A DNA stretch of 64,000 nucleotides, taken from positions 30,380,001 to 30,444,000 of the forward strand of contig OX597833.1 of assembly GCA_951406725.2 (NCBI GenBank). Reading direction: 5' to 3'. The translations under genes were made by a program, and so were the position numbers. This DNA is from Octopus vulgaris. Its lineage: Eukaryota. The notes beneath the pieces were generated by a model, which saw only the letters and a program-made list of their open reading frames with translations, searched no databases and had not been told where the DNA came from. Position 1 is the first letter of the stretch. The number at the start of each line of letters is the position of its first letter. Shown here piece after piece: positions 7,500 to 59,670 of the stretch.

Positions 7500-7512
7500 G
7501 ATCAGGGTGGCG

Positions 7513-17450: not shown

Positions 17451-17653
17451 AACCTGACAAAAGCTTAAAATATTACAATAGAGATCTTTACAACATGATT
17501 TGGCGGTCCCCACTCTTCACCTAGTAAATGAGTATGTCCTTATGTAAGGTACTAACAAAAATTAAAGAGAATAAACAAATTATTTCCAACAAGATTCTAC
17601 AAACCTTCAGGAGCCAATGCAACACACATGTAAAGATGATGATGATGATGATG

Positions 17654-27105: not shown

Positions 27106-27626
27106 GTAAGTATAAAATCTAATTTATAGTTTCTAGTGCTGTGTTCAAATCATGAGAATAGATATGGGCATCTGATTAGGAAGTTTGTTTCACAACTCCA
27201 TGGTTTCAAGTTCAATCTCACTGTATAGCACTTTGGCTATTGGTTTTCTACCATATCATCAGGTCAACTGGAGGTAAGTTGAAAACTTGGAGATCTTTGG
27301 CAGGCTGAAGGTTTAGTTTAGTTGATTTGAGAAGAGGGAATACCAAGAGCACTGTAGTGTAATTAGGAATGTAGTTACTCAACAAGTGATAGATATGTGA
27401 TTTGATACCCATCACTGGATCAGCTGTTCTATCAAATTGTTTTTATTGGCTGTGGTCATGGTAATTGCAGATTTTTCCAAAACCTGTTAGATGATGCAAT
27501 TAACATTCTTTTCTAACTGTTGTAAGTTGATGACTATAGGAAAAACTGTTGGCAAGGAGGGAATTCTAGAGAAAGAAGGACAAGGAAATAGAGGGAAGGA
27601 CTAACCCAGTTTGAAAATATATATGA

Positions 27627-37161: not shown

Positions 37162-38180
37162 TAGACTGCATCCCATCTAACAGCTGTTTCTGCTTCCAGT
37201 TTTGTATGGTATTGCCATTGATATGCTAAAAATATGTTTAGCCAATTAGCTGGAAAATTAACTGTTTTTTGGACTAGTCAGCTCACTGATTAGGTGTACT
37301 GGATGGCAGAGCAGCAGTCCCTGATTTACGCCACTTACCCTAGTTATTACCTCCCCTTAACCATAAATATTTCCCTAATTTTCCTACAGAATAAATTTGT
37401 TTCATTGTATTTACTAATTTCACATTCCTATTAAAATCTTTTGGACCATTTTCAAACCCAACCACCTTACTTCCTAAATATCTGAATAGGTTCCTCTCTT
37501 AATATTTATTCCAAATATTATTACTATTTTTTAAATCTAGTATTTACTATCCTTAGTGTTTTAGGGCCCCTTACAACATACACCATTTTCCCATTCATTT
37601 ATTTATTTATCATAACCTGTATAATGGTTTCAATAGCTTGCTTTTGTTTTTAAATTTCAACTGACCAATTACATCATATGTTGGACCTTGGCCTATCTCA
37701 CTTCTGACAACAGGTGGAAGGGCTTAACCACCTACTTGTAAATAAATAAAAATTACACTTAACTGATTAGCACTTTATTATGATTAATACTATTAATTAG
37801 TACTACAAACATAAGTATTATAAATTATTATGATTAATCTAAAATTGTAATGTATTGTCACCCCTTCTCCGATTGAAACTTACTGGCGTATCCCACTATG
37901 GTTTTTTGGTTTTTTATCCATCCTATCCCCACCATACAAAGGATTAATCATTTACTTAATATCCCAAAGAGATATGCAAGCAAAATGGTATGATTACAGC
38001 CATGTTCAACTTTTCCCTTTTTCTTCTCTATGCTCTTCTTCTTTATTTATTCTTCACTCTGATGAAGTTCCATGTTTCAGATCAGTTTTATTACCAAATA
38101 TGATAAATATTTTTAGCATATCAATGGCAATATCATACACCATTGGAAGCAGAAACAGCTGTTAGATGGGATGCAGTCTA
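37162..38180 (+). mobile_element. Putative Penelope-like element with about 74-bp terminal inverted repeats and a hammerhead-like motif
   Basis: 37162..37235 is the reverse complement of 38107..38180. CTGATGA at 38059 and GAAAC-AGCT-GTT at 38152..38163. Confidence 0.6.
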
Positions 38181-38987
38181 TTTCTATTGAATTGATAAAT
38201 AATCATTCAATTGTTGTTCATCGATACTTCTATTTTCTGTCTTCTTTAAATTTTGATTGTTGATAAACTCATGTTTATCCTTGTCTTTACCTACAATTTT
38301 ATAAGCACAATATGCTTGCATATGTATGGCCATGGTTAAACATAGGTAATGTACTGGTAGTGTAATGGATACTTCTATCCCTCAGACAGTTATTTTAACC
38401 TCTAACTCAGCTAACCTATGTGTGTGTGTGTGCATGTGTATGCCTGCTCACAAATACATACATACATATAATGAGTTATGTATTTATATTACTTTTACTC
38501 TTGTTCTGGTTTTAGTCACTGACCTGTCATCATCTTATAGTGTCTTTAAGGATATAGTTGATCATATTGGCCAAAGTACAACTTTTAACATCTTGTTATT
38601 TTATTCCTGCCATTCAAAAAGTGTATCAGAATATTTACACACACCTACATTGTAATCTGGGGTTTGACTTTGATTTCATTTCCTCCATGGGTGGCTAAAA
38701 TAATCAACAGGTATGTACTGTGGTCAATTCAATCAATTATACTCTCTATCTGTTAGCAGCCTTTGTAAATATATATATATATATATATTTTAATAATATA
38801 TTATTATTAATATTAGGAAATAAATATCAAAAGTCCTCAGAAAGATATACACGTGTGAAAAATGATTGTTGTATTAAAAATATATAAATAAATAAATATA
38901 AATATGTATAAAAATATATGTAAATATGTATAAGTATAAATATATAATGTATATGACAGTTTAAAAGTTTTGAATTAATTATTTAAA

Positions 38988-39081
38988 GTATCTTACGATC
39001 GTTTCACAGAAGAGTTGTCCCTATAATGAAATCCTATATTGATAAGCATTTATAGATAACGCTTCTGCTCTTCAGAGATAT
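38988..39081 (-). ncRNA. Type I hammerhead ribozyme (left arm copy)
   Basis: AUAUCU-CUGAAGA-GCAGAAG...CUUCUGU-GAAAC-GAUC-GUA-AGAUAC: complete core, stem I pairing, long stem II, palindromic loop III. Confidence 0.8.
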
Positions 39082-39312
39082 AAAATTTGAATTCTGTATA
39101 ACATATCGAATGGTAGTTTTTTTGTTTTTTTAATTTGAAGTAAAACTATAAAAAGGTGTTTGTTTGAAAGATAAATTAAAAATTACTGCTTTTGATTGAT
39201 AATCTTTAAATCCATATATACTTCCTTGGTTATTCTTCTTCAATAATCCATAATATTCATATGTAAAATCCGTTATATTAACTTGTAATTCAAATATAGT
39301 TCATATATATGA

Positions 39313-39353
39313 ATCCGTCCAACCCGTGCTAGCGCGGAAAATGGACGTTAAAC

Positions 39354-39398
<45 letters not shown>
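39313..39398 (+). mobile_element. Very short RTE 3'-tail insertion with (GAT)n
   Basis: ccgtccaacccgtgctagc...ggacgttaaacgatgatg matches 54671..54730; absent from the opposite palindrome arm. Confidence 0.85.
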
Positions 39399-40159
39399 AA
39401 TTAGTTCAGAAATGTGAAATTTGTATATATACTTTAGTATGAGAATCTTGAAATTCATATATGTCTTCTTGGTAATTCCTCTGTAGCAATCCATAATACT
39501 TTTGTATAAAATTCATTATATTATCCAGTAATCCAAATATAGTTCATAATACAAAATCAAATTATATTTTTAATTATATGTGAAGTTATAAATTGGTCAA
39601 AATATTTCTTTTACATTTATATTTTTATAATTGGAAGATGCCAATTATAACTGTCCATTTATTATAGATCAATAATCTATAATAAATGGACAGTTATAAT
39701 TGCATTAAATTAAAAAATCTAAAATTTTAATTGGCATCTTCCGATTATAAAAATAAAAATATAAAAGAAATATAACTTCACATATAATTTAAAATATAAT
39801 TTGATTTTGTATTATGAACTATACAAAAGTATTATGGATTGCTACAGAGGAATTACCAAGAAGACATATATGAATTTCAAGATTCTCATACTAAAGTATA
39901 TAAAAATTTCACATTTCTAAACTAACTATATGAACTATATTTGAATTACAAGTTAATATAACGGATTTTACATATGAATATTATGGATTATTGAAGAAGA
40001 ATAACCAAGGAAGTATATATGGATTTAAAGACTATCAATCAAAAGCAGTAATTTTTAATTTTTAATTTATCTTTCAAACAAACACCTTTTTATAGTTGTA
40101 CTTCAAATTAAAAAAAAAACAAAACTACCATTCGGTATGTTATACAGAATTCAAATTTT

Positions 40160-40253
40160 ATATCTCTGAAGAGCAGAAGTGTTATCTATAAATGCTTATC
40201 AATATAGGATTTCATTATAGGGACAACTCTTCTGCGAAACAATCGTAAGATGC
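40160..40253 (+). ncRNA. Type I hammerhead ribozyme (right arm copy)
   Basis: AUAUCU-CUGAAGA-GCAGAAG...CUUCUGC-GAAAC-AAUC-GUA-AGAUG. Confidence 0.78.
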
Positions 40254-40785
40254 TTTAAATAATTAATTGAAAACTTTTAAACTGTCATATACTTTATATA
40301 TTTATACTTATACATATTTACATATATTTTTATACATATTTATATTTATTTATATATTTTTAATACAACAATCATTTTTCACACGTGTATATCTTTCTGA
40401 GGAGTTTTGATACTGATTTCCTAATATTAATAATAATGCATTATTAATATATATATATATATATATACATATAATCACTCGTATTAGATATATAAATACT
40501 TTAATACTATTAATACTTTGATACAATAGAGCATTCAATATAAATACAGTATATAATATTCTCATTGAATATATTTAACTAAAGATTTATGCCTTTGTAA
40601 ATATAAAAATTATGTATGAGTGTGCATGTAGGTATGTCTGTACATACATGCATGTATGTAGACATGCACATCTGTGTAGGATAGGGAGAAAGAGAGAGAG
40701 AAAACCTGTGTGTGTATGTCAGTTTGTGATTAAACAAGACAGAGTTACATATATTTGAATTTTCTTACAATTGTTTATTCTGCAG

Positions 40786-40868
40786 ATCACTGACCTTACA
40801 CTGCAGTATTTGTCTGGTGTGTGTCATTATCTAGTTCAGCTAGATCTCAATGGCTGCAGTTTAATTAC
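40786..40868 (+). CDS. FBXL13: FBXL13-like exon J (ITDLTLQYLSGVCHYLVQLDLNGCSLI-T)
   Basis: tctgcAG acceptor, GTaagt donor, 83 nt, phase 0->2. Confidence 0.92.
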
Positions 40869-41382
40869 GTAAGTTTTATCTTGTAAATATTCCTCTTTCC
40901 TATTTCAAAAGCACAATTAAATTATCAGGTCATCCCATAAGCTCTGTCCAATTTTATCTTTTTTTAAAATTGAATGAAATTTAATAGTATTTTAGAATGT
41001 CTACATTTAAACTAATTAAATATTATTTTATAGAATAATAGAATTAAAATTTCTTTGATTAAAACCCTTTCTAACATGGAAGTATCCAAAGAGCATTTGA
41101 GTCACATAATGCTTTATGAGTACAAAAAGGAAACTCTGCAGCCAAAGCAACTCAAAACATACACTCAGTTTATTCAATCTGTTTTAATATCTCAACCTAA
41201 CAACATGTAATCCTTTTATGTCAAGTAGCTCTGATGAAATTTTACTCATATAATATTCTAAATGCAAATTTTATCTTATTATATTTATAAATAGAAACAA
41301 TTGTAGGTATTTTTAATTAACTATATGTTAATGAATTAACTTATATCTATATACTCTCCATTTTCTTCTTATTTATTATATA

Positions 41383-44000
41383 TCATCATCATCATCATTG
41401 TTTAATGTCTGCTTTTCATGCTGACATGGGTTGGACAGTTTGACTGAGGACTGGCAAGCCAGGAGGCTACACCATACCAGCACAATCATCTCTCTAGCAC
41501 ATCACATCTGATAGTTCATATGCCTAACTTTTCTCTCAGGGAGCTTACACACTGACATTACACATCCAGTGGAGCATACTAGCTTCATTTCTTGCAACCT
41601 TATGCATGTCCTCAGAAGTTACAGCCCATGTTTTTCTGCCGTGTAGCATGGTCGTTCACATACATGCGTCATACTGTCTATCTTTCACTCTGAGCGAGAG
41701 GTCTATTGTTACCAGTAAAGGTAGGAGCTCTCTGAACTTTACCCAGGCTATTCTTATTCTAGCAGCTAGGTAATAAAAGATATCAACTACTTCTAGTTTT
41801 TCTCCCTAGCATGTGATGGAAGCTGTTTTCTACACATTTTCAGTGTTTATTGCCCCTGTACATCTGCCACACACAAAAACTATCTTCCCAGTTAGCCTTC
41901 CTTTGATATTGCTGCACCTCTTTATGTGTCCATAGCTTGCACCAGGTACATCATATGGAGTTTCTACCTATGATTTTCTACAAATTGAGCAGGGCCATCT
42001 ACCTGAAGGGATTTGTGATTTGTCTGCCTTCCTACTTATTAGGACTTTGGTTTTAGCTAGGTTGACTCTAATCCTTGCTTCCACACCTAAAACTTCTCTA
42101 GTTCTGATAGTGGATCAGCTATTAGAGCAAGGTCATCAGAATAGAGGAGCTCCCAGGGGCATCCTGTTTTGAATTCCTCTGTTAATGCCTGGAGGACTAT
42201 GATGAATAAATGGGGGCTGAGGACTGATCCTTGGTGGACCCCTATCCCTACCTGGAATTCTTCACTGTACTCATTGTCAATCCTCACGTTACTGACAGCA
42301 TCCCTGTACATGGCTTGTACAGCTCTCACTAACCCCTCGTATATCCTTAGTGTCCACATTGACCATCGGATAAGGGATAAGGCTTTCTCCATGTCAACAA
42401 AAGCCAAGTACAGATGTTTATCTTTGACTAGGTATTGCTCCTGCAGCTGCCTTATCAGAAATATAGCTTTAGATATCTAAACTAACTCTGCCCCTAATTA
42501 GTTGGGCTATGACCCTCTCCATGACTTTCATCACCTGATCCAACAATTTGATACCTCTGTAATTATTTGTATCTAATGCATCACCTTTACTTTTGTAGCA
42601 GTTGACTTTGGTGCTGCTAACACCAGTCATTGAGTATGACTCCCTCATGTATAACCTGATTGACTATATGGGTGACTAGACTATAGCCTATACCACCAGA
42701 TATTTTAAGCATCTCTGGGTGATTCCTGATGGGTCAGGGGCTTTCCCTATCTTCATACTCTTACTTGCTTTATCTATCAAGGTACTGCCAATTCGAATAG
42801 CTGGTCCCTCTACTGGGTTGAGATTTGGAAGACTCTCTTTCTCCTATTCATTCTCTTCATTTATAAACCTTTCATAGTGGCGTCTCCAAGTCTCTATCTT
42901 TGCAGCATCATTAAATGCAAGTGAGCCATCATCCACTTGGACACATTTCACTCCTATGATATCATGATTCTCTCTCACACACTGTCTTGCAACACAAAAC
43001 ACTTCAAGTCTTTGATCTCCACAATGCAGAACATTGACAATTTTTTTCTTATCTGCTTCCCCTCTGTCTCCTAGCTTCCCTTCTGGCAGTCTGATACAAT
43101 TCCCTGCTACCACTGTTCTTCCAGTCCTTCATGCCTTTTTCTTTTCCCTGATGGCCCTGTCAACTATATTGTTCCACAACCACGTTACCTTAGGTCAAGC
43201 GAGGACTTTGCACCAGCCACAGATATGGTCAGTAGCCCTCAACAGGTTGTCTCATAAGAACCTCCAGTTGTCCTCCACATTGTGTGATGCTATAGCCTCC
43301 TCTTTTTTGTCAAATGCTTCAAGTACAATGTCTCTAAATTTCTGTCCATTCACAGGATCCTTAAGCTGCCAGACCCTTCTTTTCCATGCTGGTCGTCTTC
43401 TGAGGAGCCAGTTAACCCTGAACCTGATGTCACTAACTACTAACCTATGCATTCTTCACCTGGGAAAGTTTTGGCATTTATAAGTAGCCATCTTTCTCCT
43501 TTCCTGGTGAGAATGTAGTCAATCTGACAAGTATGTCCACCAGACTTGTAGGTGAACATGTGACTGGCAGGTTTCCTGAAGTTAGTATTGCTCATTGAAG
43601 TCACTAACCACAAAGAGGAAGTCTCTGATATTCATCAATGAGGTAGTCTTCAAGAGTGTGTCATAAAATCAGTCTTTCTGTTCATCAGGTAGCCCTGGCT
43701 GAAGGACATAAGCTGAGATAATGATTGCTAATCCATGTTGCAGCACTGATCACAGACTCTGACTACCTCAATTACCCTATCAACCCATTTCTCTGCAAGA
43801 AGTATACCCATGCCCCTAACCACATCAGTGTTCCCTATCCAGAAAATCTTCCTCTCCACCTTGCTTCTTGGATGCAGCACAAATCTACATGCCACCGTTC
43901 AAGCATCTCAACAATCTCACCAGACCTACCTTTCAATGTGCCAACATTAAGTATGCCAACTCTGAGTGTGTGGACAGTGTAGACCCACAAGACCCTGGGA
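41383..44000 (-). mobile_element. Degenerate RTE-clade LINE (APE+RT) with (GAT)n tail
   Basis: LRVGILNVGTLKGRSGEIVEMLERWHVDLCCIQEARW APE start; AFVDMEKA...GVHQGSVLSP...LLYSDDL RT. Confidence 0.88.
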
Positions 44001-45174
44001 TGGGGGACAGCAGCATCATGTATCTGAAAAGAAAGCTCACATTTGGCAGAACTCATAAACATACAACAGCCTTCAACCTGCATACACTATACCATCATTT
44101 TATGCGCTATGTAATCACTTCCATAGGAGATAAACATTAAGTAGGGATGGGGGAACATTTAAGCCATTGGAGGTGTTCAAGGAAAAGACATCCAATAGAG
44201 GTCAGAGGATAAAGACTTCCAGTTTAGGTGGGAGTGGGATGGGTGGGTGCACCATGAAACAGCTACACTCTGGCTGCCAGTGTGAAAGAATAACAATAAT
44301 AATTATAATGAAATAGAATTGGACATTTGCAGTCTTAACTAGAGTTATAACCAACAGTATTCGGTCAGCCAAACTGTGACAAAATTAAATAAAGGAATGA
44401 ATAACTACAATAAAGGAGCATGAAAGAGAGGGAGAATTGGATTGAATGTAGGGATCTCAAGTTATCTCTAACATACAACATGGAAGACGAAGCTGTGGGT
44501 ACATAGATAATAAAATAATAAAGTAATTATAATTTGCACTGTAAAAAGAGGTTTTTAGATGTGTGTTAGGTTGGAAACAAAATTGCTTATCTGAACATCT
44601 GTGACTTCTACTTCATGTGGCAAGATATTAAAATATGAGGTAGGTGAATCTGAATGAAGCTAATTTATATGGCGGGGGTGGGGGGTTAGAGGTAATTTCA
44701 TCATGTTGGAAGAAGCATGTGGTTAACGGAACTGAGACCAAGGGGCGATAGAGAGAGAGGGAGAGAATCTAGAGTTAGGCTGATCCATGGGAAGAATATA
44801 GATTTTGTTTGGGGGTTGAAAATGTATGTAACTGATTCTTAAAACAAATTATAGTCTATTTTTAATTTGTTGCATTTTTTATTAAAAAACAATATTGTTT
44901 TCAGTAAGTTTATTCTTTTGTTTTTCAATGGTAAATGAAAAAGTTCAAAAGCAATTGAATGAACAAGAGAAAATTCAGTAAAACATACTCAAAAAACAAA
45001 AACAAAAAAAAAAAACAATCAAATTCAAATATCCAGGAAAAATTCACAATAATAGAGAATAATGAAATTTCAAATGTTCAATGAACTTCATAACAACAAT
45101 ACATGATTGAGAGTTCTGAATATTTCAAAGCAATAAATTATACTACCAATTAGATATGATGAAAGAGTTCTATA

Positions 45175-45332
45175 TTTAAGAGATGAGGAAATAGGTACAT
45201 TATTTACATTTGATGGATATTTGTTCTCATCTTGTTTGTTGTTAACACAACGTTTTGGCTGATATACCGTCCTGCCTTTGTCAGGTGTCTTGGGGAAATT
45301 TCGAACCTGGGTTCTCATTCCTAAGGTATTTT
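45175..45332 (-). mobile_element. Penelope-like terminal repeat with a decayed minimal hammerhead
   Basis: Minus strand GACAC-CUGACAA-AGGC...GCC-AAAAC-GUU-GUGUU; inverted partial copy at 49430..49502. Confidence 0.5.
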
Positions 45333-45349
45333 TCGTCGTCGTCGTTATT

Positions 45350-47926
45350 ATTACTTTTTTTTTCTTCTTTCAAATTTGCTTCCATTTCTTGCCGAGTGTC
45401 TTCCCGACTCCTAGGGCAAAGAAACTCATAGTAGGCCATTAAACCAAACTCAGTAGTTCGTTCATTTTTTTTTTTGAAGTTAAATTAAAATACATGAGCA
45501 GCAACAGTTCTCACATCGACAATACTCTTCTCAATACGTGTGATGTACCAGTTAAGACAATCTTTTGCACTTCTTGCAGGGATGGTAAGCCAGGGATCAT
45601 TCTCATATAATTTTCGGTTCCCTTCTTGATCATTTCTAGTGCTCCTACGATCACTGGTATTGTAACCGCCTTGAGATGCCACATTTTCTCAATTTCAATG
45701 AGTAGGTCTTTATATTTTCTGAGCTTGTCAAACTCTTTCGCTGAGATATTATGATCACAGGGGATGCTCATGTCGATCAATAAGCAAACTTTATTGTTTT
45801 GGTCTTTCACAACAATATCTGGTTTATTGGCCTTGATGGTTCGGTCTGTATGTACTGGAAATGGTTACATTTTCTCCTTCAGTTACAGCCTCAGGGTGGT
45901 GATTATACCACTTGTCGGCAGTTTTGATATTGTAATGCCGACTTATTAGCCAGTGGAGATATTGGCCAACTCTGTCATGTCTTAATTTATACTCCACTGG
46001 TGCTAAGACTTTACATCCAGAGATTAGGTGGTCCACTGTTTCAATCATGTCGTTGCAGAATCGGCATTTTGGGTCTGCTCCATTTTTCATCACATTGGCC
46101 TGGTAGTTCCGGGTTAATAGGCTTTGATCTTGAGCAGCCAGGATGAAACCTTCGCTCTCTGCTTTTAGCCCTGAGCTCCGTAGCCACTGATGGGTTTGCT
46201 TCTGGTCAACATCAGCTTGTTTGCTGCGGGTCACATATTTGCCGTGCAGGGGTTTCTCCTCCCACCTATCAGCCAATTGCTCGTGCGCTTTCTTCATTGC
46301 CATCATTTTCACCTTCTTTGCAACAATAGTTGCCGTACTTCCCTTGGGTTGTTCAGTTTGGGTATCCTGCACGAGATTAATAGCAAATTTTTTGCTTTCC
46401 TTTATGATAGAATGAAGCTTCTTTCGTCTCTCGTGATTTTCCACGAGCTTTAGCATCCAGTCATTCGATATTTCGAGATATTTGGCCAGTCCAATTGTGG
46501 TTGTTTTGTAAGCTAGTTCAAATTGGATCAGGCCTCGACCTCCTTGGGCTCTGGGAAGGTAAAGGCGATCTACGTCTGCCTTTGGGTGGTGCATCCTATT
46601 ACAACTCAGCAGCTTGCGTATTTTTCTATCTATATTCTTTACTTCACTCATATTCCAGTTCAACACATTGTAGCTATAAGTAACAACTGGAACTGCTAAG
46701 GAATTTATAGCTAACACCTTGTTACGTGCATTTAGTTCAGATTTCAGGACTGCACGAACTCTCCTATAACATTCCTTCCTGATTTTCTTTTTCATGCTTG
46801 CATGCTGAATACCAGAGCCTTCATTTATCCCTAAATATTTGTATGTTTGTTCTTGCTCAAGCTCTCTTATGACTGTGTCAACATTTAACACGACTGAATT
46901 TGTGGTCTTCACTTTCCCTTTCTGGAAAGTGGCCTTGGCACACTTCTCAAGTCCAAAGTCCATCCCGATGTCATCGCTGAATGCTTTCACGGTGCGCAAT
47001 AGGCCTTCAAGTTCGTTATTGTCTTTACCATAAAGTTTTAAGTCATCCATATAAAATAGATGGCTTATTTTTTTATTGGCAATTTTATACCCATACCCTG
47101 TTCTGTTTAATTCACTTGTAAGGGGTATTAGGGCTATGCAGAATATTAAAGGTGAAAGTGAGTCACCTTGAAAAATTCCACAGTTGATGTTTATATTTTC
47201 TGAGGCAAGTACTCCATTAGAGTGGTATAATTGGAGATTCGTATTCCACAACGACATATTGTGCTTCAGGAAGTTTGAAATCACAGGGGAAATTTTGAAG
47301 ATGTCCAGCGATCTCAAGATCCATGGATGCGGTATACTGTCGAAGGCCTTTTTGTAGTCAATCCATGCGGTGCTGAGATTTCTGCGCTTGTTGTGACAGT
47401 TCTCAAGGATCATACGATTGATTAGCAGTTGATCTTTGCATCCGTAAGAGCCTCGGCGGCACCCTTTTTGTTCAATGGGGAAAATATCATTCTTCTCCAT
47501 GAATGCATATGTTTTCTCCGCCAGGATAGATGTTAGGATTTTATACGTGGTGGATAGACAGGTTATAGGCCGATAGTTTTTTGGAAGGTTGGTTTCGTTA
47601 TTCTTTGGGAGTAGGTAAGTAATGCCACTTGCTAACCATTCAGGTGTTTTCTTTGGGTCTCTCATAATTCCATTGAGCAGCTGAACTAGCTTACCGTGTG
47701 CGCATGGGAGCGATGCGAGCCAGAAATTCGGCACCCTATCTTTACCGGGGGATTTCCAATTATGGGCCTTCGTGAGTGCCTTTCTTAGGTCTGCTATTGT
47801 GATGTCTTCCCATGCTTGTTGTTGTAAATTTTGGTAGGATCCTTCAGTTTGTATAATCCAGTCTGCATTTATGTTGTACGTCTTCTTGCCACTCCAAATC
47901 CTTTTCCAAAAGTTTTGAACTTCTTC

Positions 47927-47929
<3 letters not shown>
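45350..47929 (-). mobile_element. 5'-truncated R4/Dong-like RLE LINE (701-aa RT ORF, zinc finger, restriction-like endonuclease)
   Basis: NYRPITCL, KKAFDS, GIFQGDSLSP, FYMDD; CRFC...HLISGC; KPDIVVKD...LIDMSIP; both ends adjoin TAA-type repeats. Confidence 0.9.
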
Positions 47930-47987
<58 letters not shown>

Positions 47988-47990
<3 letters not shown>

Positions 47991-49346
47991 TAGTTTTATT
48001 TTTATAGCGTGCTTTCACTTCACTACTGATTGCAGCTCTGTGTGCCTTGGGTATGTGCTGTAATTTGTTGATGGTTACTGTATTGAAAGTGTTTTGCGTT
48101 GGTTGTGTGCAGTGACTAGTAGTGCAATTTTATGTATGTTATATGTGTTTGTAAGTCCTGGTGTTTTTGTTATGTATTTGTCTGAATATTTTTTTATCAT
48201 ACCTAATGCGCCTACTATGATAGGAATTGTTTCTGTTTTTAGAATCCACATTCGAGTTACCTCTATTTCCAGGTCTTTGTATTTTGGAAGTTTCTCCATT
48301 TCTTTTAGAGACACGTTGTCATCTGCTGGTATTGATACATCAATTAGAAAGCATTTTTTTCTTCATGATCTCTGACAACTATATCTGGCCTGTTGGCCTT
48401 AATTTCTCTATCTGTGTGTATTGGCATATCCCAGAGTATGGTTGCTTTCTCGTTTTCTGTGACCTTTTCTGGTGTGTGCCTATACCATCTTTCTTCTGTT
48501 GTTATTCCATAATGTTAGCATAGCTTCCAGTGTATGTCGTGTCTGGGAATATATTCCTTCTTAGCCAGGACTGGGCAGCCAGAGATAATGTGATTTATTG
48601 TTTCTTGTCCATCTCCACATATTCTGCAGTTATGTTTCTTTTCATTATATGTTTTTGGTAATTTCTGGTGGGGAGGCTTTGGTCTTGTGCAGCAATTAAA
48701 AATCCTCCGATTTTGGGTGATGCATCCTAGATCCTGTCATTATTTTTCTTGCTTTCCTATCTATTTTGGTTAGTTCATTTAGTGTCCAGTTAAGGATATT
48801 GTAGCTGTAACTTATAACTGGTACGGCTAAAGTGTTAATACCTATTATCTTGTTTTTAACATTGAGCTCTGTTTTTAGTATTGATCTCACTCGTCTATAG
48901 TATTCTTTCTTTATTTTCTCTTTCATTTGTGTGTGTTGTATCTTATCTAGTTCATGGATTCCTAAGTATTTGTAAGTTTGGCTTTGGTCTAATTCTCTTA
49001 TTTCATTGGCCTTATCTAGTGTGATGTTGCTACTCTCAACTAGTTTCCCTCTTTTCAGGGTTACTTTGGCGCATTTTTCTAATCCAAATTTCATATCTAT
49101 TTCTTTGGTAAATCCATGAACTGTCTTTAGTAGTGTTTCCAGCTGTTTGTCATTTGTAGCGTATAGTTTTAGGTCATCCATATATAGAAGGTGGTTGATC
49201 GTTTTGCCATAACATTTATATCCGCATCCAGTTCTAGTTAGCATATCAGATAGAGGTGTCAGTACCAAGTAAAAAAGGAGTGGAGAGAGCGTGTCTCCTT
49301 GGAATATTCCTCTTCTAATGGGGATAGCTTTGGTTTTCACGAGTCC

Positions 49347-49349
<3 letters not shown>
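47988..49349 (-). mobile_element. Second, internally deleted R4/Dong-like LINE between two (ATT)n tracts
   Basis: RGIFQGDTLSP, LYMDD, MHHPK; RPDIV...LIDVSIP; IIVGALG; (ATT)n at 47928..47987 and 49350..49412. Confidence 0.88.
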
Positions 49350-49416
<67 letters not shown>

Positions 49417-50290
49417 TCACTGCTTGTGGGGTATATCAGCTGAAACATTACGTTAACAACAAACAAGATGAGGACAAATATTCATCAAATGTAAATAATG
49501 TAGATATGATAAAGTTTGAAAAAGTAATAAGAAATATATTTTTTACAGTTTCTTTTAAAGTACATGAAGGAAAATTTTTATTCTCTTTCATGTACTATAA
49601 TAGAAATTGTAAACAATGTCTTGGTTTTGCTGGTGGGAACTTGAATGGTTTTAAGCTTAATTTGCTTTGTATATATAGGTTTTATGATATTGGCTCTTGT
49701 CCTAATTGGTTGTAAACTCAATGATATCACTTGTTTTTGGACACCTGTAACCTAGTGTTTTGGCTGGCTGGCTGGCTGGCTGCCTGAGTATGTCATTTAT
49801 TTTTAGAACATTCTGCTGAGTTGACTTCCTCATGACCTCACCTATTTTGATTGCATGTTTTTGTCCAATAGTAATCTAGTGCTCTGGTTAGTTGATTTTT
49901 TTGTACACATCATCTTTTCCAAATGTCTTGGTCAGTTTTGCTTTTTTTTTTTTGTCTGACAGTCATCCAGTATTCCAGTTGGCTAATTCCCTTAAGATGT
50001 CATTTGTTTTTCTGATGTTTCAGTCAAATTATAGACATCATTTCTTTATTTCTTTTTTCCTTGAGTGGTCTGGTTTTGACCTAAAAATTCTAATTGGTCA
50101 ATCCTAGAGTGACATCTACTAGTGTTAAAAAAGTGTAACGTACAGTGGTTTGAAGTTAGGTTTTTGAATTCCAGTTAGGCTTTTTAATCTGTTATCTCTA
50201 CTTTTGATTTATTTTTGTTGTTTCTTGTCGTTGAATAAAATATGTTTTCTAATTCTATAGTATTGTTGTAGAGCATTTAATTTTAGTTTA

Positions 50291-50680
50291 TCATCATCAT
50301 CATCATCATCATCGTTTAACGTCCGTTCTCCATGCTAGCATGGGTTGGACGGTTCGACCAGGGATCTGGGAAGCCAGAAGGTTGCACCAGGCTCCAGTCT
50401 TATCTGGCAGTGTTTCTACAGCTGGATGCCCTTCCTAACGCCAACCACTCCGTGAGTGTAGTGGGTGCTTTTTACGTGCCACCTGCACAGGTGCCAGGCG
50501 AGGCTGGCAACGGCCACGGTCGGATTGGTGTATTTTATGTGCCACCAGCACGGAAGCCAGACGAGGCGGTGCTGGCATCGGCCACGAGTCGGATGGTGCT
50601 TTTTACGTACCACCAGACCAGGGATCCTGGCTGGTTCAATTCGATTTCGATTTCGCTTGCCCCAACATGTCTTCGCAAGC
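50291..50680 (-). mobile_element. RTE LINE 3' UTR fragment with (GAT)n tail
   Basis: About 170 nt identical to the reverse complement of 54551..54730. Confidence 0.85.
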
Positions 50681-50899
50681 ATTTCTTAATAAACACATTT
50701 TCCTTAATTTAATTAGAATTGGGTTGAAGTGTTCCTGATGCATTCAATATAGAGGGAAAATTTTGTATTTGGAATGTTTGTTTACAGGACACAGATTCAG
50801 ATGTTTACTCAGGGGTATTTTCCTGGTCGTGGGGTCTCAACTCTCTTGCTTGCGTACTGTCATTCTGTCTTTCAGAGTTAAACTAGCTTGTCATCACCT

Positions 50900-51480
50900 C
50901 ACAGTTATTAACATAAATTAAATTGTATTCAGAGTAAAATAAAGGATTTTCAAAGAGACATTATCAAGGAATTTCAGTCACTTTCCCAACTTCAGGAGAG
51001 TGAGTACATTCCCTGATACTGAAATAAAAGACCACATCTGGAAGAAAACAAATATGAATTACAAAGTTTCCTTGATAATTTCCTAACCAGGCTTGATGAC
51101 TTTTTGAAGATGAAGCCTTGTTTCCTCTCTTGTAAATCCATTCAGTTTTCAGACCTCTAGTTATGGAATCATCTGCTGTGGAAATGCAACTAATGGAGTT
51201 GCAGGAGGACCTGGATCAAAAAAGGATCCATAAATTCCAGTCTATAATCAAGCTTGGAAAACAAGTTCCAGAAATAAAACATCCTAAACTGAAAAAAACT
51301 AGTGTGTGACTCATCTCAATTGTCAGCATAACATACTGCTGTGAATCACTGTACTCTGTAATGAAGTTTGTGAAACTGAGGCATCATACACAAGTGACAG
51401 AGCTAATTCATACAGTCTTCATAATATATCAGCCTGATTTTCAGTGTCATTGTCAAGACATTTACTACCAGTAAATAGCT
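50900..51480 (+). mobile_element. hAT transposase C-terminal remnant
   Basis: QLMELQ...WKQVPEIKHPKLKK...LISIVSITYCCESLYSVMKFVK, resembling the hAT dimerisation domain. Confidence 0.7.
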
Positions 51481-52533
51481 TCTTTAATAGCCTGATGTGT
51501 GTTGTATTGTCTGTTTATCTTAAAAATATTATGATAAGACTAACTCCGTAAGGTATGATCTAATTTAAATATCTCTAATTTTATTGGTTTGCTCTTTTTA
51601 CATATTTTTCTCCATGTTTTGATCAGATGATATCTGATCAAAACATTAAGATAAATAAATATCATTCAAAATATATTTTTGTTCCTTTTCACTTTTAATT
51701 TTATGCTATTGAAATGTAATTTCATACATTTTTCTTAAATATTTCTGTAGTTCATTACTGCATTAAATAAACTAGAACTTGGTGTTTAAAATGAAACTAA
51801 TACAATTTATCAGTTTAAAAAAAACTGCATCCATAATGAATATTATTGTATACATACAAAATGTGTATGTAACAAAACATTCTTTTATTTTACTGGTTTC
51901 AGTCATTAGACCGTAGACATGCTAGGACACCACCTTTAAGGTATTAAGCCAACCATGTCAACCCCAGTACTTATTTTCTCGAGTCTAATACTATGTTATC
52001 TATCTAAGTTGTAGAACATAAACGCAGACACAGATACAAACATAAATGCAGAGTAAATGTTGTTCATGTCTTGCAGCTCTCAAATTTCTGAATTTTATTG
52101 AATATGCCACTTAGGTTAAGCAAGTTTGGCCATCCCTGCTATAGTCTATGCCAATGAGCTGGTGTAGCGAATCAATTCAATTATTTTCCAAGCTTCTGAA
52201 GAAAAGCAGCTGAAGTTGGCTAGTATTTATCCATAGTAATTTTATGTGTAGTACTAACAATGAATGTGTTTGCTAATTGTCTGTATGCTCATTAAACACA
52301 TACTAGGTAGATGCTTGTGTGTATATTAAATGTATGTGAATTGATGTGTGTGTGTGTGTGTGTGTTTGTATGTTCTTGTGTGAGCAGAAAGGTGGTGAAA
52401 AAGACAATCCTAAAGAAAATAAACTCCTTTTTCTGTTTTTATTCTGGTATGTTTTGATGTCAGAGAAAGCACTTACTGACTTAATCTCATTCTTGTTACT
52501 GGAGCAGACAGAGGCATCAGTGGAAGAAAGTGC

Positions 52534-52816
52534 AGATATTTTCCTTTTGAACGGCACTTTGTAACATAATTTCTAGGTAACTAAAAAGTTTTAAACTTCG
52601 TATACTGGTAGAATGTGTTTATAAAACATCATTTTCTCTTGGCTTTATTGAGAAAATTCTATAGGTTGTAACATATTTCGTCTAAAATTTCTTGCATTTC
52701 GGCAATTTTAACCACTCAATTACCTCCATTGAGGTAAATAACATTCTGTGCATAATGAATATGTCCCTCCTTTAAGAAACAGATTGGGTTTATTTACATT
52801 TGTGAAGAAAAAAAAG
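52534..52816. mobile_element. One end of the same Merlin-like TIR family as 9859..10824
   Basis: gatattttccttttgaacggca...aaacttcgtatactggtagaatgtg matches the reverse complement of 10600..10824. Confidence 0.75.
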
Positions 52817-54730
52817 ATGCCAGGGAAGAGTACCACTGATGCTATATTCCTGGTAAGGAAGCTGCAGGGGAAATACCTAGCCAAAGATAAGCCCCTGTAC
52901 CACGCTTTCGTTGACATGGAGAAAGCCTTTGACAGAGTCCCCCGGTCCCTTATCTGGTGGTCAATGAGGAAACTAGGGATAGATGAATGGTTAGTGAGAG
53001 CTGGGCGAGCCATGTACAGGGACGCTGCTAGTAAGGTGAGGGTTGGCAACGAGTATAGTGAAGAATTCCGGGTAGAGGTAGGGGTCCACCAAGGTTCAGT
53101 CCTAAGCCCCCTCCTATTTATCATAGTCCTCCAGGCAATAACGGAGGAATTCAAGACGGGATGCCCCTGGGAGCTCCTCTATGCTGATGACCTTACTCTA
53201 ATTGCTGAGTCACTATCAGAACTGGAGGAGAAGTTTCAGGTGTGGAAACAAGGATTAGAATCGAAGGGCCTTAGAGTCAACCTAGCTAAAACCAAAGTCC
53301 TAATAAGTAGGAAGGTAGACAAATCACAAACGTCTTCAGGTAGATGGCCCTGCTCGATCTGTAGAAAAGGTGTAGGTAGAAACTCTATAAGGCGCACCAA
53401 GTGTAAGCTATGAACACATAAGAGGTGCAGCAATGTCAAAGGAAGGCTAACTAGGAAGATAGTTTTTGTATGTGGCAGATGCTCAGGAGCAATAAACACT
53501 GAAAATGCTCTGAGACCATCTTCCGCCACATTCCAGAGAGAAAAACTAGAAATAGTTGATAGCTTCCGTTACCTAGGTGACCAAGTCAGTAGCGGGGGCA
53601 GGTGTGCTGAAAGTGTAACTGCTAGAGTAAGAATAGCTTGGGCAAAGTTCAGAGAGCTCTTACCTCTGCTAGTGACAAAAGGCCTCTCGCTCAGAGTAAA
53701 TGGCGGACTGTATGACGCATGTGTATGAACAACCATACTACATGGCAGTGAAACATGGGCCGTGACTGCTGAGGATATGCGTAAGCTCACAAGAAATGAA
53801 GCCAGTATGCTCCGATGGATGTGTAATGTCAGTGTTCATACTCGACAGAGTGTAAGAGAAAAGTTAGACCAAAGAAGCATCAGTTGTGGTGTGCAAGAGA
53901 GATGTTTGCGCTGGTATGGTCATGTGGCGAGAATTGATGAAGATAATTGTGTGAAAAAGTGCCACACCCTAGTGGTTGAGGGAACCTGTGGAAGAGGTAG
54001 ACCCAGGAAAACCTGGGACGAGGTGGTGAAGCATGACCTTCGAACTTTAGGTCTCACTGAGGAAATGACTAGAGACCGAGACCTTTGGAAGTATGCTGTG
54101 CATGAGAAGACCCAGCAGGACAAGTGAGACCATAACCTGTGGCCTCTACCTGGGATGTAGCCAGTCCACTTATGCATACCTTTCCTTCTTGGGACACAAA
54201 ACTTTATTTGTGAAGACCTGTTGAGGCAAGTGAAAATCAAAATCAAAATCGAAATCAATCAACATCAATGGAAATTGCAGCTGTGATACAAGTGCCGGTG
54301 GTATGTAAGAAAACCATCCAAATGTTGCCGTTGCCAGCACTGGCCTCGTGCCGGTGACACGTAAAAAGCACCATCCGATCATGGTCGTTGCCAGCCTTGC
54401 CTGGCCCCCGTGCCAGTGGCATGTAAAAAGCACCATATGATCGTGGCTGTTTGCCAGCCTCGTCTGGCACCTGTACCGGTGGCACGTAAAAAGCACCATC
54501 TGATCATGGCCGTTTGCCAGCCTCATCTGGCACCTGTGTTGGTGGCACGTAAAAGCACCCACTACACTCACGGAGTGGTTGGCGTTAGGAAGGGCATCCA
54601 GCTGTAGAAACACTGCCAGATAAGACTGGAGCCTGGTGCAACCTTCTGGCTTCCCAGATCCCTGGTCGAACCGTCCAACCCATGCTAGCATGGAGAACGG
54701 ACGTTAAACGATGATGATGATGATGATGAT
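52817..54730 (+). mobile_element. 5'-truncated RTE LINE with RT, repeat-containing 3' UTR and (GAT)n tail
   Basis: PGKSTTDAIF...AFVDMEKAFDRV...GVHQGSVLSP...LLYADD; RLRWYGHV...RGRPRKTW. Confidence 0.92.
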
Positions 54731-55162
54731 GTACTTTTGTGATCTTTTCTAACCATTCACGTATGAATCCGATGGTTCCTATTTGAAAGTTTTGGTTTTC
54801 TTCCGGAGTTTTGTTTTGATGAAGAAGTTTTTCCGTCTTTCTCAAAGGCTGCCATTACTTTCGAGACAGTACTTCTTGATGCACCAAACATTTCGGCTGT
54901 TTTTGTTACGCTAGCACCTGCCATACAAGTGCCAACAACTTCACCTCTTTGAAAGTCTGATAAATCTGTCATTTTAATGCATTTTAATTACCTTTTTTCT
55001 GATCATATCTGAAAAAAAACAGCAATTTTAGCAAAACATATTAAGCAACACTAATAATAAATCAAAAAACATAAAAAGTAACAAGCTTTTGATAGTTTTA
55101 TAGATATTTCAAAATTATGATGCTATGATGCTAGGTGTTTCCATTATTTTGTCCAACCCCTG
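54731..55162 (-). mobile_element. Tc1 element 5' fragment
   Basis: TA|CAGGGGTTGGACAAAATAATGGAAACACC TIR; MTDLSDFQRGEVVG...GASRSTVSKV...SGRKPKLS paired-like HTH. Confidence 0.85.
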
Positions 55163-55646
55163 TACATATTAATACAAACCTCACTGAAATTAATTAGTAC
55201 ATGAAAAAGTTTGTGAAATAGCTGTGGTCCTATAGAAGTCACATTGTTAAATAAATGTATATTCACCTCTGAACCCCCTCAACTTTATGTATATATATTT
55301 ATATATAGCGCAGGGGCAGGAGAAAAAAGGCAAATGGACAGGAAAAGAGATAACTAAATATCTTATGACTAGATATAGAGTCTGTTTACTATGAGAAAAA
55401 ACCTTGCAAATTATGTTAATTCTAGCATACTACTGGTGCTTACTTTAAACTAGAATTTATTCTGGTACGTTTTGATGTCAGAAATGGTAAGTATTAAAAC
55501 ATATAAATAATAACCTATTTGTTCTATTGGATAGAGTAATATTGTGTTGGAGGCTCCTAAAAGAATTTATATGATAAAGATTTATGTAAATCTTAATTTG
55601 ATTTGTCTTTATACATTATCATTCTCCTATATTTTTGTCTTTCCAG

Positions 55647-55727
55647 AGATAAAGGAATGAAATATGTGCAGAAAGGCTGCAATTGGTTGCGCATCCTGAA
55701 CATTCTCTATTGTAAAAGTATTTCAAA
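55647..55727 (+). CDS. FBXL13: FBXL13-like exon K (DKGMKYVQKGCNWLRILNILYCKSIS)
   Basis: tttccAG acceptor, GTgtgt donor, 81 nt, phase 2->2. Confidence 0.88.
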
Positions 55728-58700
55728 GTGTGTATAACATTTTTATGTTTATTTCATTGAGTGGCATGACAGTTTGGATTGTCGAACACACAAACTTATA
55801 GAATGCATGTTTTTCCCTCAAAGAAATGTCCCAGAAGCAGCCTGTATCATAAACTCCAGATCAGGGCTTGGGTTACTGGCAAGTGATGGTTCAAGAAAGG
55901 AATTAACAAATTCGAGATATATTCTATAATCTCATTGTATGTGTGTGGGTGTGTGCATGTGTGTGCACACGTGTGTATGTGTATCACTAATAGTCCATAA
56001 GTAAAAATAGAGCACACTCTAAAAGAGAAATAGTGATGTAATATTATTATATTGTCAAATAACATACTACTGGTTATAGCATTACTGATTTCAACTGTGT
56101 ACATGTGTGTAGTTCTAAAATCCAAAAATGGGGATGACCCTGTTGCCAAAATGAAATATTTTGCTTTTTGAGTTCAAGAAAGGATTTGGATAAGATGAAT
56201 TTTATATTCTCTTCTCAGCCAAGCAAAGCTTGGAATGTCTATTTTCACTCAGATATGCCCAAGGTTGTTCCAGCACTCTCCAGTTGATTTTTGTAGTGTT
56301 TTTTCCTCCTTTCATCACTATATATAGCTACCATTTCATTGCATCTCTCTTGGGTTCTAAAAGAGGATCTGTGATTATTTCACCTGGCCCTAATGCGGCC
56401 CTCCATTGCCAACATACTTCTGTGTGTGTATGTGTTCCTCTGTTGTTGGACATCACCACTTCTGCTTCATATACCATGACCACTGCAATGCTTTGACCAT
56501 TCACTGGGCATTCATTGTTAGCCAACCTGCCTCTGCACAGGGCCTTGGAGCTTACTCTAATATTTTTTTATACTAGCTGAATGAGACCCTTAAATTATGT
56601 CTATTGAATAATTTCCTGTACCTATAGCCCTGTGTAAAATACTTATCCACTAATCAATAGAAGGCCCTTCCTATGCTGAATGAGAAAGGTGGAAGAAACA
56701 AGAGGATGCTACAGTGGTACTTTCTCTTGTGAGTGTCAGGATTAGGCACATAATACAGTCCTTAAACTTACTGGCTGCCAGCTAGAGCCTTGTTGTAATA
56801 TGGAACTGTTGTACCAGAAATACATTGATTTGAGAATAGGTTTGAAGTCCCCCTACTGAAACCCTTTACAAGGTTTTTAAACATAATAGACATATAACAG
56901 GAATCTGTGTTAATGTACGATAGCCTTTCCGTAGGTTTTACCATAGTATGAACCAGTGGCCTATTCAAGAGTGAGTCTCTATAGTACCTTTAAGTCCTAG
57001 GAAGTTAAAAGTGTGGATCAGGTCTTTTGTAAAGCTGCCCAGAGTGTGCCTGTTCATATCTTTAGAGATGGCTCAAGTGTTATCTCTTTATAGGCCAAAG
57101 TAGATTCATAGGAATTTCTCACCTTGGGTCTCTAGTATAGATAGGCCCATGAAGTCACAGATATCCATGCTGATAAATGCTCCTAGCAACATATTGAAGT
57201 AACATTCTGGGTCTGTTTTGTTTGACCAAAGTGGAACCATTATCTCACAGCATGTTTTTTCTGGTGTGTATTGTTACCTTTATATCCCTTAGTAAAATTA
57301 AGTTCCCCATCTAATGACCCTTTTGATATAGATGATATAGTCCACATTATTGAACTGGGTGAATTTTGCTCTGCCTCTACTCTGGCTTGCCTTAAACCAT
57401 GAAATTACTTCACTGGTATTACATCATAAGGAAAAATAGGATCCCTTTTTTATGTCATTATTTAACTTCCTCAATACATTGTAACTCACCAGCCCAGTCT
57501 CTAATTTTACTGGTTTAATCAGGCAGCACTTGGGATTACGGCAAAATTTTGGCTTGTTATCCTTAATAGTAATAAAGTCATTCCTCATACTTTGTCTGTT
57601 TGGCTTTGTTGTTAATGTTACCGTTTGTATGAAGCAAAGTCTGCCTATAGTTTGCATGACACTGTTCCCTAAGAGCCTGTCATATGTGCCAGTAATTACT
57701 CTATATAAGTTTTTAGTTTTATCTGAATTTTTAAATTGTGAAGTGCTGCAATTTGCATGAAGCCACTGGAATCATTCTCACTGCTTGACATTATAAATAT
57801 ATAGAAACAATGTAAGCAGTATTATTTGATATTCAATTAAATAGCTATTAAGATTATTCCAGATATTAGTCCCCATGTTTCAAGTACTTGCCCCAATCAT
57901 TGGTGGAGAAGAGAGAATTCATAAACACACATATTTATAATAGTTTGAGTTAGTGTTCTTATAAATTACCTCTACACTGGTTATTGTGATATTGCTAACA
58001 TTGTTAATATTGATTAACTTGTTCATATGAATATTGAAATGTACAGCAGACAGGATAAGAGGAATGCTTTACAACTACAAGGATCACAAGCATGGAAAGC
58101 AGATGTTAAATGATGATGATGAGGTGGAAGAGGCAGATATGTATGTATATGTTTGGATATATATATTGTGTGTGTTGTGTGTGTGTATGTATGTGTATGA
58201 TCATCAATATTTGATGCTTGGCTTTCCATGCTGGCATGGGTTGGACAGTTTGAAGGATCTGACAAGTTGAAGAACTACACCATGCGCCAGTATCTACTTT
58301 GGCATGGTTTCCTAATGCCAACAACCTTACTAAGATGTACTGGGTGCTTTTTATGTCGCCAGCACTAGTGAAGATTACCTTATAACTTGCAAGGCTAAGG
58401 GCCTAATGTGGACCCTATAACTGAGAGAGAATAGAAAAGTGGGCATGATTCTAGGCAGAGTGATGAGGAAAAGTCAGGAAGATGAGAGAGATAGACTTAT
58501 AATTGTGATAGGGTGAGAAGGGAAAGAATATCATGTGTTAGAGTATGCACTAATTAGGAGAGGGATTCTGGCAAGGAAAAAGGAGGGGATTATTATCAAG
58601 GGTTATTGAGAAGAGGAGGACAAACTGGAAAAGGGCAAGTAGAGACAGAATGTGTAAAGGAAAGGAAAGGAAAGGAAAGGGAAGGAATGAAGAAAGAAAG

Positions 58701-59337
58701 GAAGGGAGCAATATACCGGGGTGGAGAGGATAGTGAAGTGTGAGGTTATGGGTATTGTAGACAAAAGAGAGATGGGGTAAATATGAGAACAGGTATTAAG
58801 GAAACAGAGAAGCTGTAGAGAGAAAGTAGTGAGAAAAAAATGAAGCAGGAGGGCAAGGGAGGAGTGGGTGAGTGCACTCAGAACAATGAATAAAGAGAGA
58901 CTGGAGGGTATTATAAAAGTAGAGAGAAGGGGAAGAGCAGAGTGTGGATGCTGCAAAAGCATCTTAGATGGGGAGGTAGTGAAGAGAGTTTGGTGTGAGA
59001 GAGAAAGGAATAAGGGGAAACTATGGGTGGACCCAGTGAGTACAATAAGAGAAAGAAAGGCAAAAGGGCATCCAAGAGGTATAAGGGTGAGGTAGTGAGA
59101 TATGAGGAAGTATTGGATAACAGTAGAGTTAACTCAAGAGAATGTGTGCTGGTTGCTAGTACAATAGAACAAATAAGATGGGTTGGAGGCTATGAGGGAT
59201 GAAAAAATGAGAATTGTGGGCGAGTGAGCAAGAGGATATATATATGTATATTCTTTTATTCTTTTACTTGTTTCAGTCATTTGACTGCGGCTATGCTGGA
59301 GCACCGCTAAGTAACAGGGACGTAAACACACCAGCAT

Positions 59338-59371
<34 letters not shown>

Positions 59372-59433
59372 ATAGAAATGGTAAGACAACAAAAGAATGA
59401 AAGAGACCTCAATATTATGTAAATAGAGGGATT

Positions 59434-59639
59434 TATCTGTAAATGTAATATGTGACAATTATTCGGAAGCCATAATAAAACTCCAAGTTTCGGATGTTGG
59501 GGTGGAAATCCATGCTGCCATCTTTTCACCGATTGCCGGATAACTGAAGAGATGGCAGCGTGGATTTCCGTCCCGACATCTTAAACTCGGAGTTTTATTA
59601 TGGCTGCCAAATAATTGTCATATATTACATTTACAGATA
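59434..59639. repeat. About 95-bp-arm palindrome in (TA)n with inverted hammerhead-like cores
   Basis: Arms 59434..59528 and 59545..59639. + strand GGAUAA-CUGAAGA-GAUG...CAUC-U-UAAAC-UCGGA-GUU-UUAUU; the minus copy has an intact GAAAC. Confidence 0.75.
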
Positions 59640-59670
59640 TATATATATATACACACACATACATATATAC

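Follow-up and report, generated by a model that had tools for sequence, protein, structure and literature searches.

Hammerhead-bearing inverted repeats in an octopus genome as probable 3′ ends of different Penelope-like retroelements

We analyzed a 64,000-nt stretch of the 2.8-Gb genome of Octopus vulgaris (contig OX597833.1, positions 30380001-30444000; hereafter, the window). It carries four families of inverted repeats with hammerhead ribozyme motifs: A (37-38 kb), B (39-40 kb), C (45-49 kb) and D (59 kb). Very probably, as judged from sequence comparison, each of these repeats is the 3′ end, or pseudo-long terminal repeat (pLTR), of a different protein-coding Penelope-like element (PLE) that was truncated at its 5′ end and has an inverted piece at the 5′ junction. 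The hammerhead would be predicted to cut RNA only as a dimer. From their motifs, A, B and D appear to be of the Hydra type and C of the Penelope/Poseidon type. The evidence is that each family continues upstream into a PLE open reading frame (ORF) of its own, so that the short copies are 5′-truncated copies of autonomous elements.

Penelope-like elements upstream of the repeats

In family D, pieces of an N-terminal ORF adjoined the repeat in 3 of 30 loci. A genome search with a D ORF piece returned copies having the hammerhead repeat immediately upstream of the ORF, and two full copies, L144 and L145 (L-numbers denote genomic loci of individual copies), had the order inverted pLTR, ORF, direct pLTR. 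The ORF carries the motifs RWK, DKT, CxCX5C, CxxC and CxH, and the look-alikes of its endonuclease (EN) include GIY-YIG clusters at a score of 0.95. Copies of family B continue past the point where the window copies fold back, into a Hydra-type ORF with the same motifs as in D, and in L296 a pLTR lies upstream of the ORF. A fixed fold-back 5′ end for B was rejected as an artefact of the palindromic query, because the copies extend into the ORF. For family A, L292 and L293 have a Hydra-type EN C-terminus (CxxC/CxH) that lies 1.7-1.9 kb upstream of the hammerhead; the CxCX5C linker was seen only in diverged relatives with about 74% identity.

In family C, the order from upstream to downstream is the GIY-YIG end of a Penelope/Poseidon-type ORF, a tRNA-like head, (AAT)n and a hammerhead tail. 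The head directly followed the EN stop codon in 27 of 30 EN copies, and the tail followed the head in 26 of 30. The element has a single ORF with a DKG-containing reverse transcriptase (RT) and a GIY-YIG domain at the C-terminus, and this ORF was interrupted in all copies seen. DKG was present in the full copy L263, the RT of copy L262 matched RVT_1, and the look-alikes of the EN were GIY-YIG clusters with a score of 0.97.

The pLTR was present at both element ends, with the 5′ copy inverted, in L144 and L145 (D), L263 (C) and L296 (B). The 5′ ends of A, B and D copies were staggered and graded into the ORF. An inverted partner lay within 1.5 kb in 8 of 29 copies of A, 3 of 28 of B, 17 of 29 of C and 13 of 29 of D. 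Two alternative 3′ ends, with or without an optional tail, were found in C and D. Of the D insertions, 28 of 29 ended on (TA)n, at one of two sites, and both window ends of B also lie on (TA)n. For PLEs, copies truncated at the 5′ end, inversion of the 5′ copy, a tail of 30-40 nt that may or may not be present, and insertion into microsatellites have been described (PMC8557442; PMC3846280); the inverted pairs, the two alternative 3′ ends and the (TA)n targets are this published insertion signature.

An original prediction, made from the window sequence alone, had described a radiation of non-autonomous elements with inverted pLTRs, a link to Penelope elements and (TA)n flanks. The pLTRs, the Penelope link and the (TA)n targets were borne out. 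The non-autonomous radiation was not, since each family runs upstream into its own PLE ORF and only C has a large class of short interspersed element (SINE)-like copies. The number of families, put at four, was also too low: a fifth, E, lies at 41.2 kb. It had 42 genomic matches (68-86% identity) with an 11-bp stem II in the majority sequence, a Hydra-type EN upstream in several loci, and often an arrangement in inverted pairs.

The ORF of B has, in L277, L279, L281, L282 and L294, an Asn-rich insert between the RT thumb and the EN. Comparable Asn-rich inserts are described in rotifer Penelope elements (PMC3846280).

Hammerhead cores and their conservation

We defined a whole core as CUGANGA ... 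GAAAC-loop-GUH. It was found in three of the eight arms in the window, A right, B left and B right (Table 1); in A right, CUGAUGA falls outside the inverted repeat. Among the other arms, A left lacks the CUGAUGA half, the C arm at 45.2 kb has CUGACAA and AAAAC in place of the core, and the C arm at 49.4 kb is truncated. D right has UAAAC in place of GAAAC, and D left has GUGAAAA in place of CUGANGA. When a majority sequence was built for each family from its 30 best genomic matches, the type I core (CUGANGA, GAAA and UH in this order) was present in all four. The whole 13-nt core was retained in 23/28 (A), 22/28 (B), 12/29 (C) and 21/28 (D) copies outside the window after removal of duplicates. 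Similarity between the families was limited to core-sized words of 9-14 nt. The prediction of four unrelated inverted-repeat families that all carry cores thus stands for the families, not for most of their arms in the window.

A descriptor scan of the window (stem I of at least 4, stem II of at least 3) returned four full-core matches: the three arms above and a new one at 41231, in E. As predicted, this is above the frequency in dinucleotide shuffles, whose mean was 0.005 and of which 0 of 200 reached four matches. An Rfam scan reported no hammerhead at E≤10.

The core was less variable than the rest of the repeat, with 18 of 1298 non-CpG positions variable as opposed to 410 of 11692, although these counts come from related copies picked for likeness to the window copy and are suggestive only, with an optimistic significance. 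The difference was seen in A, B and D. Core position N7 varied freely in C. In L311, a relative of A, the core and the stem II arms were kept with a different loop II; stem arms are retained across diverged subfamilies.

The computed pairing of the loop III segments was as dimers (-11.1, -10.0, -1.7 and -9.7 kcal/mol) and not as monomers. The stems of B pair directly (5+7 bp) and C folds as drawn. In D, 96% of cells were paired, compared with 32-56% with a slid alignment. Stem I of A requires a bulge, and positions 10.1/11.1 are A.A.

Single matches to at least three further hammerhead types were present in DNA flanking retrieved loci (L204, L269, L048 and L093).

Several observations weigh against the interpretation of the repeats as ends of PLEs with a functional ribozyme. 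The selection of the copies, mentioned above, affects the conservation counts, and in C the core was not more conserved (7/290 versus 49/2928). For the majority sequences of A and D, the fold of minimum energy was not the hammerhead fold, and the base of stem II is A.A in A and has a bulged C in D; published PLE hammerheads have a G-C pair there (PMC4209133). In the D helices, covariation was not above shuffles (one two-sided pair, with 378 of 500 shuffles as high). On the protein side, the clade names rest on motifs and not on a tree, and for A the RT was found only in diverged relatives and the N-terminal RWK/DKT region was not recovered. No intact ORF was found for any family, and Pfam assigned neither the Hydra-type RT pieces nor the EN of C to a family. 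Finally, the available reads (see below) showed no pile-up of starts or ends on C, including the predicted cut site, in unstranded data covering about 6% of each run.

Formation of the inverted copies

Published work on PLEs suggests how such copies could form. The RT/GIY-YIG protein would nick AT-rich DNA, and reverse transcription would begin at one of two internal sites of the RNA that lie just beyond the pLTR, giving the optional tail. It would often halt early and fold back, giving the inverted arm. An internal RT start at two sites that defines the tail is described in PMC11167929. The ribozyme would likely trim the precursor RNA when two copies pair through their palindromic loop III. 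Because the arms of a pair are in opposite orientation, they would be expected to anneal to one another and not to give an active dimer. Minimal hammerheads of the dimer type, in opposite-strand pairs and with low activity in vitro, have been described (PMC4209133), and hammerhead cleavage was dispensable for insertion in vitro, with no reads ending at the cut site (PMC11167929). Most window copies are decayed; by inference, they would be stumps of such PLE insertions.

The tRNA-like head of family C

The head of C aligned end to end with tRNAs of the same genome. The best among 30 sampled was Arg(TCG), with z=7.6 relative to shuffles and 45 of 68 aligned bases identical in one copy; other tRNAs score close to it. 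Judged by the usual consensus, the head has putative A and B boxes. ARAGORN called a tRNA in 0 of 29 C loci, Rfam gave no tRNA match, and blastn of the head against phage gave only two chance matches.

Among copies selected by the head, 25 of 29 began within 16 nt of its first base and four extended upstream. Exact 20-mers were counted 842 and 1,014 times at two sites upstream of the head and 5,148 times in the head. When scaled by their retention in EN-linked copies (21, 17 and 9 of 30), these become about 1,200, 1,800 and 17,000, where inverted heads count twice. The full copy L263 had no TTTT run in 2,633 sense bases, as opposed to 32 AAAA runs; three Hydra-type ORFs had 15-18 TTTT runs. 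In this post hoc test, counts as low were reached by 22 of 1,000 shuffles with its own codons, 0 with outside codons and 8 with shuffled bases. A second, partial C copy had one TTTT run and was low only relative to outside codons, and an R4-like control with four runs was also somewhat low by that measure (41/1,000).

We considered whether a hammerhead element is drawn to the (AAT)n tail of C, C itself being a separate SINE. This was rejected because head and tail were linked within 600 nt in 22 of 30 head loci (query locus included) and because both follow the EN stop codon. The short copies are not an independent non-autonomous lineage, the same head being present in the 3′ untranslated region (UTR) of the autonomous element in 27 of 30 EN copies.

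The tRNA-like head at which most copies start, together with the TTTT-free full copy, hints at transcription by polymerase III. Copies that start at the head likely reflect a short polymerase III RNA and SINE-like copying. In a fuller version of this idea, C would be an autonomous Penelope-type element whose pLTR acquired a tRNA-Arg-derived promoter and which polymerase III transcribes over its full length, with TTTT terminators purged from the 2.6-kb coding strand. The same promoter would give a short head-(AAT)n-hammerhead RNA that the protein of the element copied about 10,000 times, so that the SINE would be the terminal repeat of its own partner. We regard this full version as rather unlikely.

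The sharp 5′ boundary of C could instead result from stalling or snap-back of the RT at a small native hairpin before the head, the head being a passive SINE relic with no role as a promoter. We regard this explanation as somewhat less likely than not. A short self-complementary stretch lies right at the boundary, head-to-head junctions are centred on it, and PLE inverted junctions with palindromes have been described (PMC3846280). The negative ARAGORN and Rfam results and the lack of a read-start pile-up also agree with it. Against it, the boundary coincides with position 1 of the aligned tRNA, and the absence of TTTT from the sense strand of the full copy is not explained by a passive relic.

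The reads came from three unstranded cDNA runs of one study on a related organism, about 6% of each run being covered. They cover C, and 77-78% continue into unrelated flanks, which indicates that passive read-through dominates. Among the 15 joints shown of 37, there was no circle-type joint at the cut site of C, which in ordinary cDNA reads is a weak test.

Of the words sampled from the C pLTR, a fraction of 0.54-0.83 was present in sequencing runs under six organism codes; the pLTR is thus shared among related species.

Alternative explanations

The four repeats could be independent non-autonomous, retrozyme-like elements that spread via circular RNA and borrow only the proteins of PLEs. In its favor, most copies lack an ORF and the 5′ boundary of C is sharp. 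Moreover, L265 (G000:C16:47253600-47255800) is a tandem array of D in which a 109-nt unit, usually with a whole core, occurs at least 20 times, which fits the definition of a non-LTR retrozyme (bioRxiv 10.64898/2026.07.22.740005); this locus is a retrozyme-like array derived from a Hydra pLTR. Such a multi-unit array was found in only 1 of 30 D loci, however, and the 5′ ends of A, B and D are staggered and grade into the ORF. The lack of a circle-type joint among those shown points the same way, and we consider this origin improbable.

We give even less credence to the view that the motifs are dead relics or chance matches under no selection for ribozyme function, which we consider most improbable. 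The broken cores in five of the eight window arms, the lack of an Rfam match and the D covariation result are in its favor, and hammerhead mutants of an anole PLE still insert in vitro (PMC11167929). Against it, no shuffle attained the observed number of cores, and in five families that are unrelated the core occupies the same position close to the 3′ end. In A, B and D it varies less than the flanking sequence, and diverged subfamilies still retain the stem arms. Whichever explanation holds, many of the old copies, taken singly, are certainly dead. Truncated ends of PLEs thus remain the explanation that we prefer for the four repeats.

Copy number in the genome

Genome searches gave at least 40 scored matches per family, and first-look candidates numbered 782 (A), 762 (B), 1,600 (C) and 2,234 (D). 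Exact patterns spanning the core occurred 2,157 times for C, 1,776 for D, 190 for B and 12 for A, with none for the reversed controls; these are lower bounds, each pattern having one fixed gap length. The original prediction had expected a very large census, and four per 22 kb would extrapolate to about 500,000 genome-wide. The exact-core counts are far below this. There were no copies of A-D in 92 kb of DNA flanking tRNA loci and one in the 20 kb following the window, so copies are locally dense in the window. Exact cores number in the thousands, as in other animals: published counts are 2,000-9,000 hammerhead copies per genome (PMC4209133), with more than 6,000 for a coral, about 5,000 for a mussel and as many as 120,000 for axolotl (PMC7229834).

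Comparison with known systems

It is already known that PLE ends carry hammerheads, that their arms can be inverted and that an animal genome may hold thousands of copies. Families A, B, D and E resemble the Hydra clade of PLEs with a C-terminal EN, in which RWK, DKT, a CxCX5C linker and, at the C-terminus, a GIY-YIG with CxxC and CxH are described, together with insertion into (TA)n, a hammerhead near the 3′ end, an inverted 5′ copy and a tail (PMC8557442). They differ in their long 3′ UTRs (about 0.7-1.9 kb from the stop codon to the hammerhead), in the 31-86 nt between the core halves and in copy numbers of hundreds to thousands. The supplement of that study lists one octopus Hydra family, Hydra-1_Obim of Octopus bimaculoides, with the remark 'no pLTR' (PMC8557442); we compared it with A, B, D and E by description only.

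The hammerhead of C fits fully the minimal type I hammerheads of animal PLE pLTRs, which occur as opposite-strand pairs 100-700 bp apart in thousands of copies per genome (PMC4209133): it has no loop III, a closing G-C pair, an unpaired base on the 5′ side of stem II and a 5-bp stem I. In A, B, D and E, by contrast, loop III is short and palindromic or 3-5 nt long and stem/loop II is much longer, and A and D have the irregular stem II bases described above. As an element, C resembles Poseidon_Ac (PMC11167929) and Adineta Pen2a (PMC3846280) in its DKG-containing RT, its C-terminal GIY-YIG, a pLTR that continues into the ORF start, two 3′ ends about 25-30 nt apart, the inverted pLTR and a target-site duplication. 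Unlike in those elements, the pLTR opens with the tRNA-like head and the (AAT)n spacer; the signals described for Pen2a are of the TATA/Inr type and not of the tRNA type (PMC3846280).

The short copies of C are similar to the SINE-like hammerhead repeats of Schistosoma (PMC6765202), short repeats with a tRNA-type promoter followed by a type I hammerhead. Those are tandem and non-coding, whereas the C unit doubles as the terminal repeat of an autonomous element with an ORF, and it occurs mostly singly or in inverted pairs. Non-LTR retrozymes have a type I hammerhead and a PLE-pLTR origin (PMC7229834; bioRxiv 10.64898/2026.07.22.740005), which the 109-nt units of the D array fit. The window copies, unlike retrozymes, are inverted pairs and not tandem hammerhead units, and a tandem arrangement was found only in L265.

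An octopus repeat annotation reports active Penelope-like and Dong-R4 families, and its main text makes no mention of ribozymes (PMC13282606). What is new here is a set of Hydra-type families whose long stem II would escape the usual descriptors and Rfam. The non-standard stem II bases of A and D are test cases for what a hammerhead tolerates. If C were a protein-coding retrotransposon driven by polymerase III, one would have to ask how an uncapped RNA comes to be translated, and the origin of a SINE would be linked to Penelope elements. A search of titles and abstract openings, which left out subscription papers, Repbase and Dfam entries and the 1994 octopus SINE paper, found no PLE with a tRNA-like head.

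Host gene and layout of the window

The features of the window are listed in Table 1. The inverted repeats were computed as 37162-37235/38107-38180 for A, 38884-39185/40056-40357 plus neighbours for B, 45196-45335/49429-49506 for C and 59418-59528/59545-59655 for D.

Table 1. Host exons, repeat arms and hammerheads in the window (positions in the window)
Position	Strand	Feature	Evidence
26944..27106	+	Host exon, F-box/leucine-rich repeat (LRR)-like gene	LRR_4 match
near 7.94, 32.07, 33.43, 55.65 kb	+	Further host LRR exons	F-box/LRR-like gene
37162..37235	-	A, inverted 5′ arm; GAAAC-AGCU-GUU hammerhead half only	
37235..38417	+	A, 3′ UTR/pLTR of probable Hydra-type PLE, 5′-truncated	82.5% match to another copy; upstream walk reaches GIY-YIG-type C-terminus
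38059..38163	+	A, hammerhead with whole core; 86 nt between core halves, A.A at stem II base, palindromic loop AGCU	
38766..39650	-	B, left arm, ends in (TA)n; hammerhead 39075-38994, whole core, loop GAUC	
39673..40473	+	B, right arm, 3′ UTR/pLTR of probable Hydra-type PLE, ends in (TA)n; hammerhead 40166-40247, whole core, loop AAUC	
41169..41383	+	E, probable older Hydra-type 3′ end; hammerhead 41231-41305, stem II partly deleted in window copy	
45166..45361	-	C, pLTR tail, long 3′ end; hammerhead 45284-45249, mutated core	
45362..47927	-	R4/Dong-like non-LTR piece in internal (AAT)n of C; RT, zinc knuckle, restriction-like nuclease motif	ORFs; RVT_1 E=1e-29
47988..49349	-	Second R4/Dong-like piece, between two (ATT)n runs	ORFs; RVT_1 E=5e-15
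49413..49426	-	C, 14-nt remnant of tRNA-like head	
49429..49506	+	C, inverted 5′ arm, short 3′ end, without CUGANGA	
59375..59528	-	D, left arm, long 3′ end on (TA)n, mutated core	
59530..59642	+	D, right arm, pLTR of probable Hydra-clade PLE, short 3′ end on (TA)n; CUGAAGA intact, GAAAC mutated	

All four families had been placed in one gene. A, B, C and E do sit between exons of an F-box/LRR-like gene at 33.4 and 55.65 kb on the + strand, but D lies 3′ of the last exon detected (55.65 kb); a motif scan of the remaining window and the following 20 kb found no host exon beyond 55.7 kb. The closest solved-structure relative of the host exon product was F-box/LRR-repeat protein 2 (E=7e-16). In the host pre-mRNA, only the + arms are in sense orientation and the + arm of B has a 545-nt complement close by, which makes cutting of the host intron by the ribozyme unlikely.

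The C copy in the window is a single insertion: a 13-14-nt direct repeat flanks it, and only one arm has the long 3′ end. The 4-kb distance between its arms arose only because two pieces of long interspersed elements (LINEs), which we take from their motifs to be of the R4/Dong clade, inserted in its (AAT)n. Other C copies likewise carry insertions in the (AAT)n spacer. The left arm of B is broken at about 39308-39396 by a short (GAT)n-tailed repeat.

Several other repeats were seen in the window. A decayed Hydra-type ORF of another family, with about 42% identity to the RT of D, lies at 56344-57723 on the - strand, and a strict scan found no hammerhead for it. At 3819-7499 (+), gag-like, protease and RT/RNase H-like frames flanked by direct repeats mark an LTR-type retrotransposon, and at 11218-16187 (-) there is a fragmented non-LTR element with an APE endonuclease. 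Two fold-backs look perfect and were without a hammerhead core in the scan: one of another repeat with 153-nt arms at 10058-10365, and one at 17642-17976 with 87-89-nt arms in three parts.

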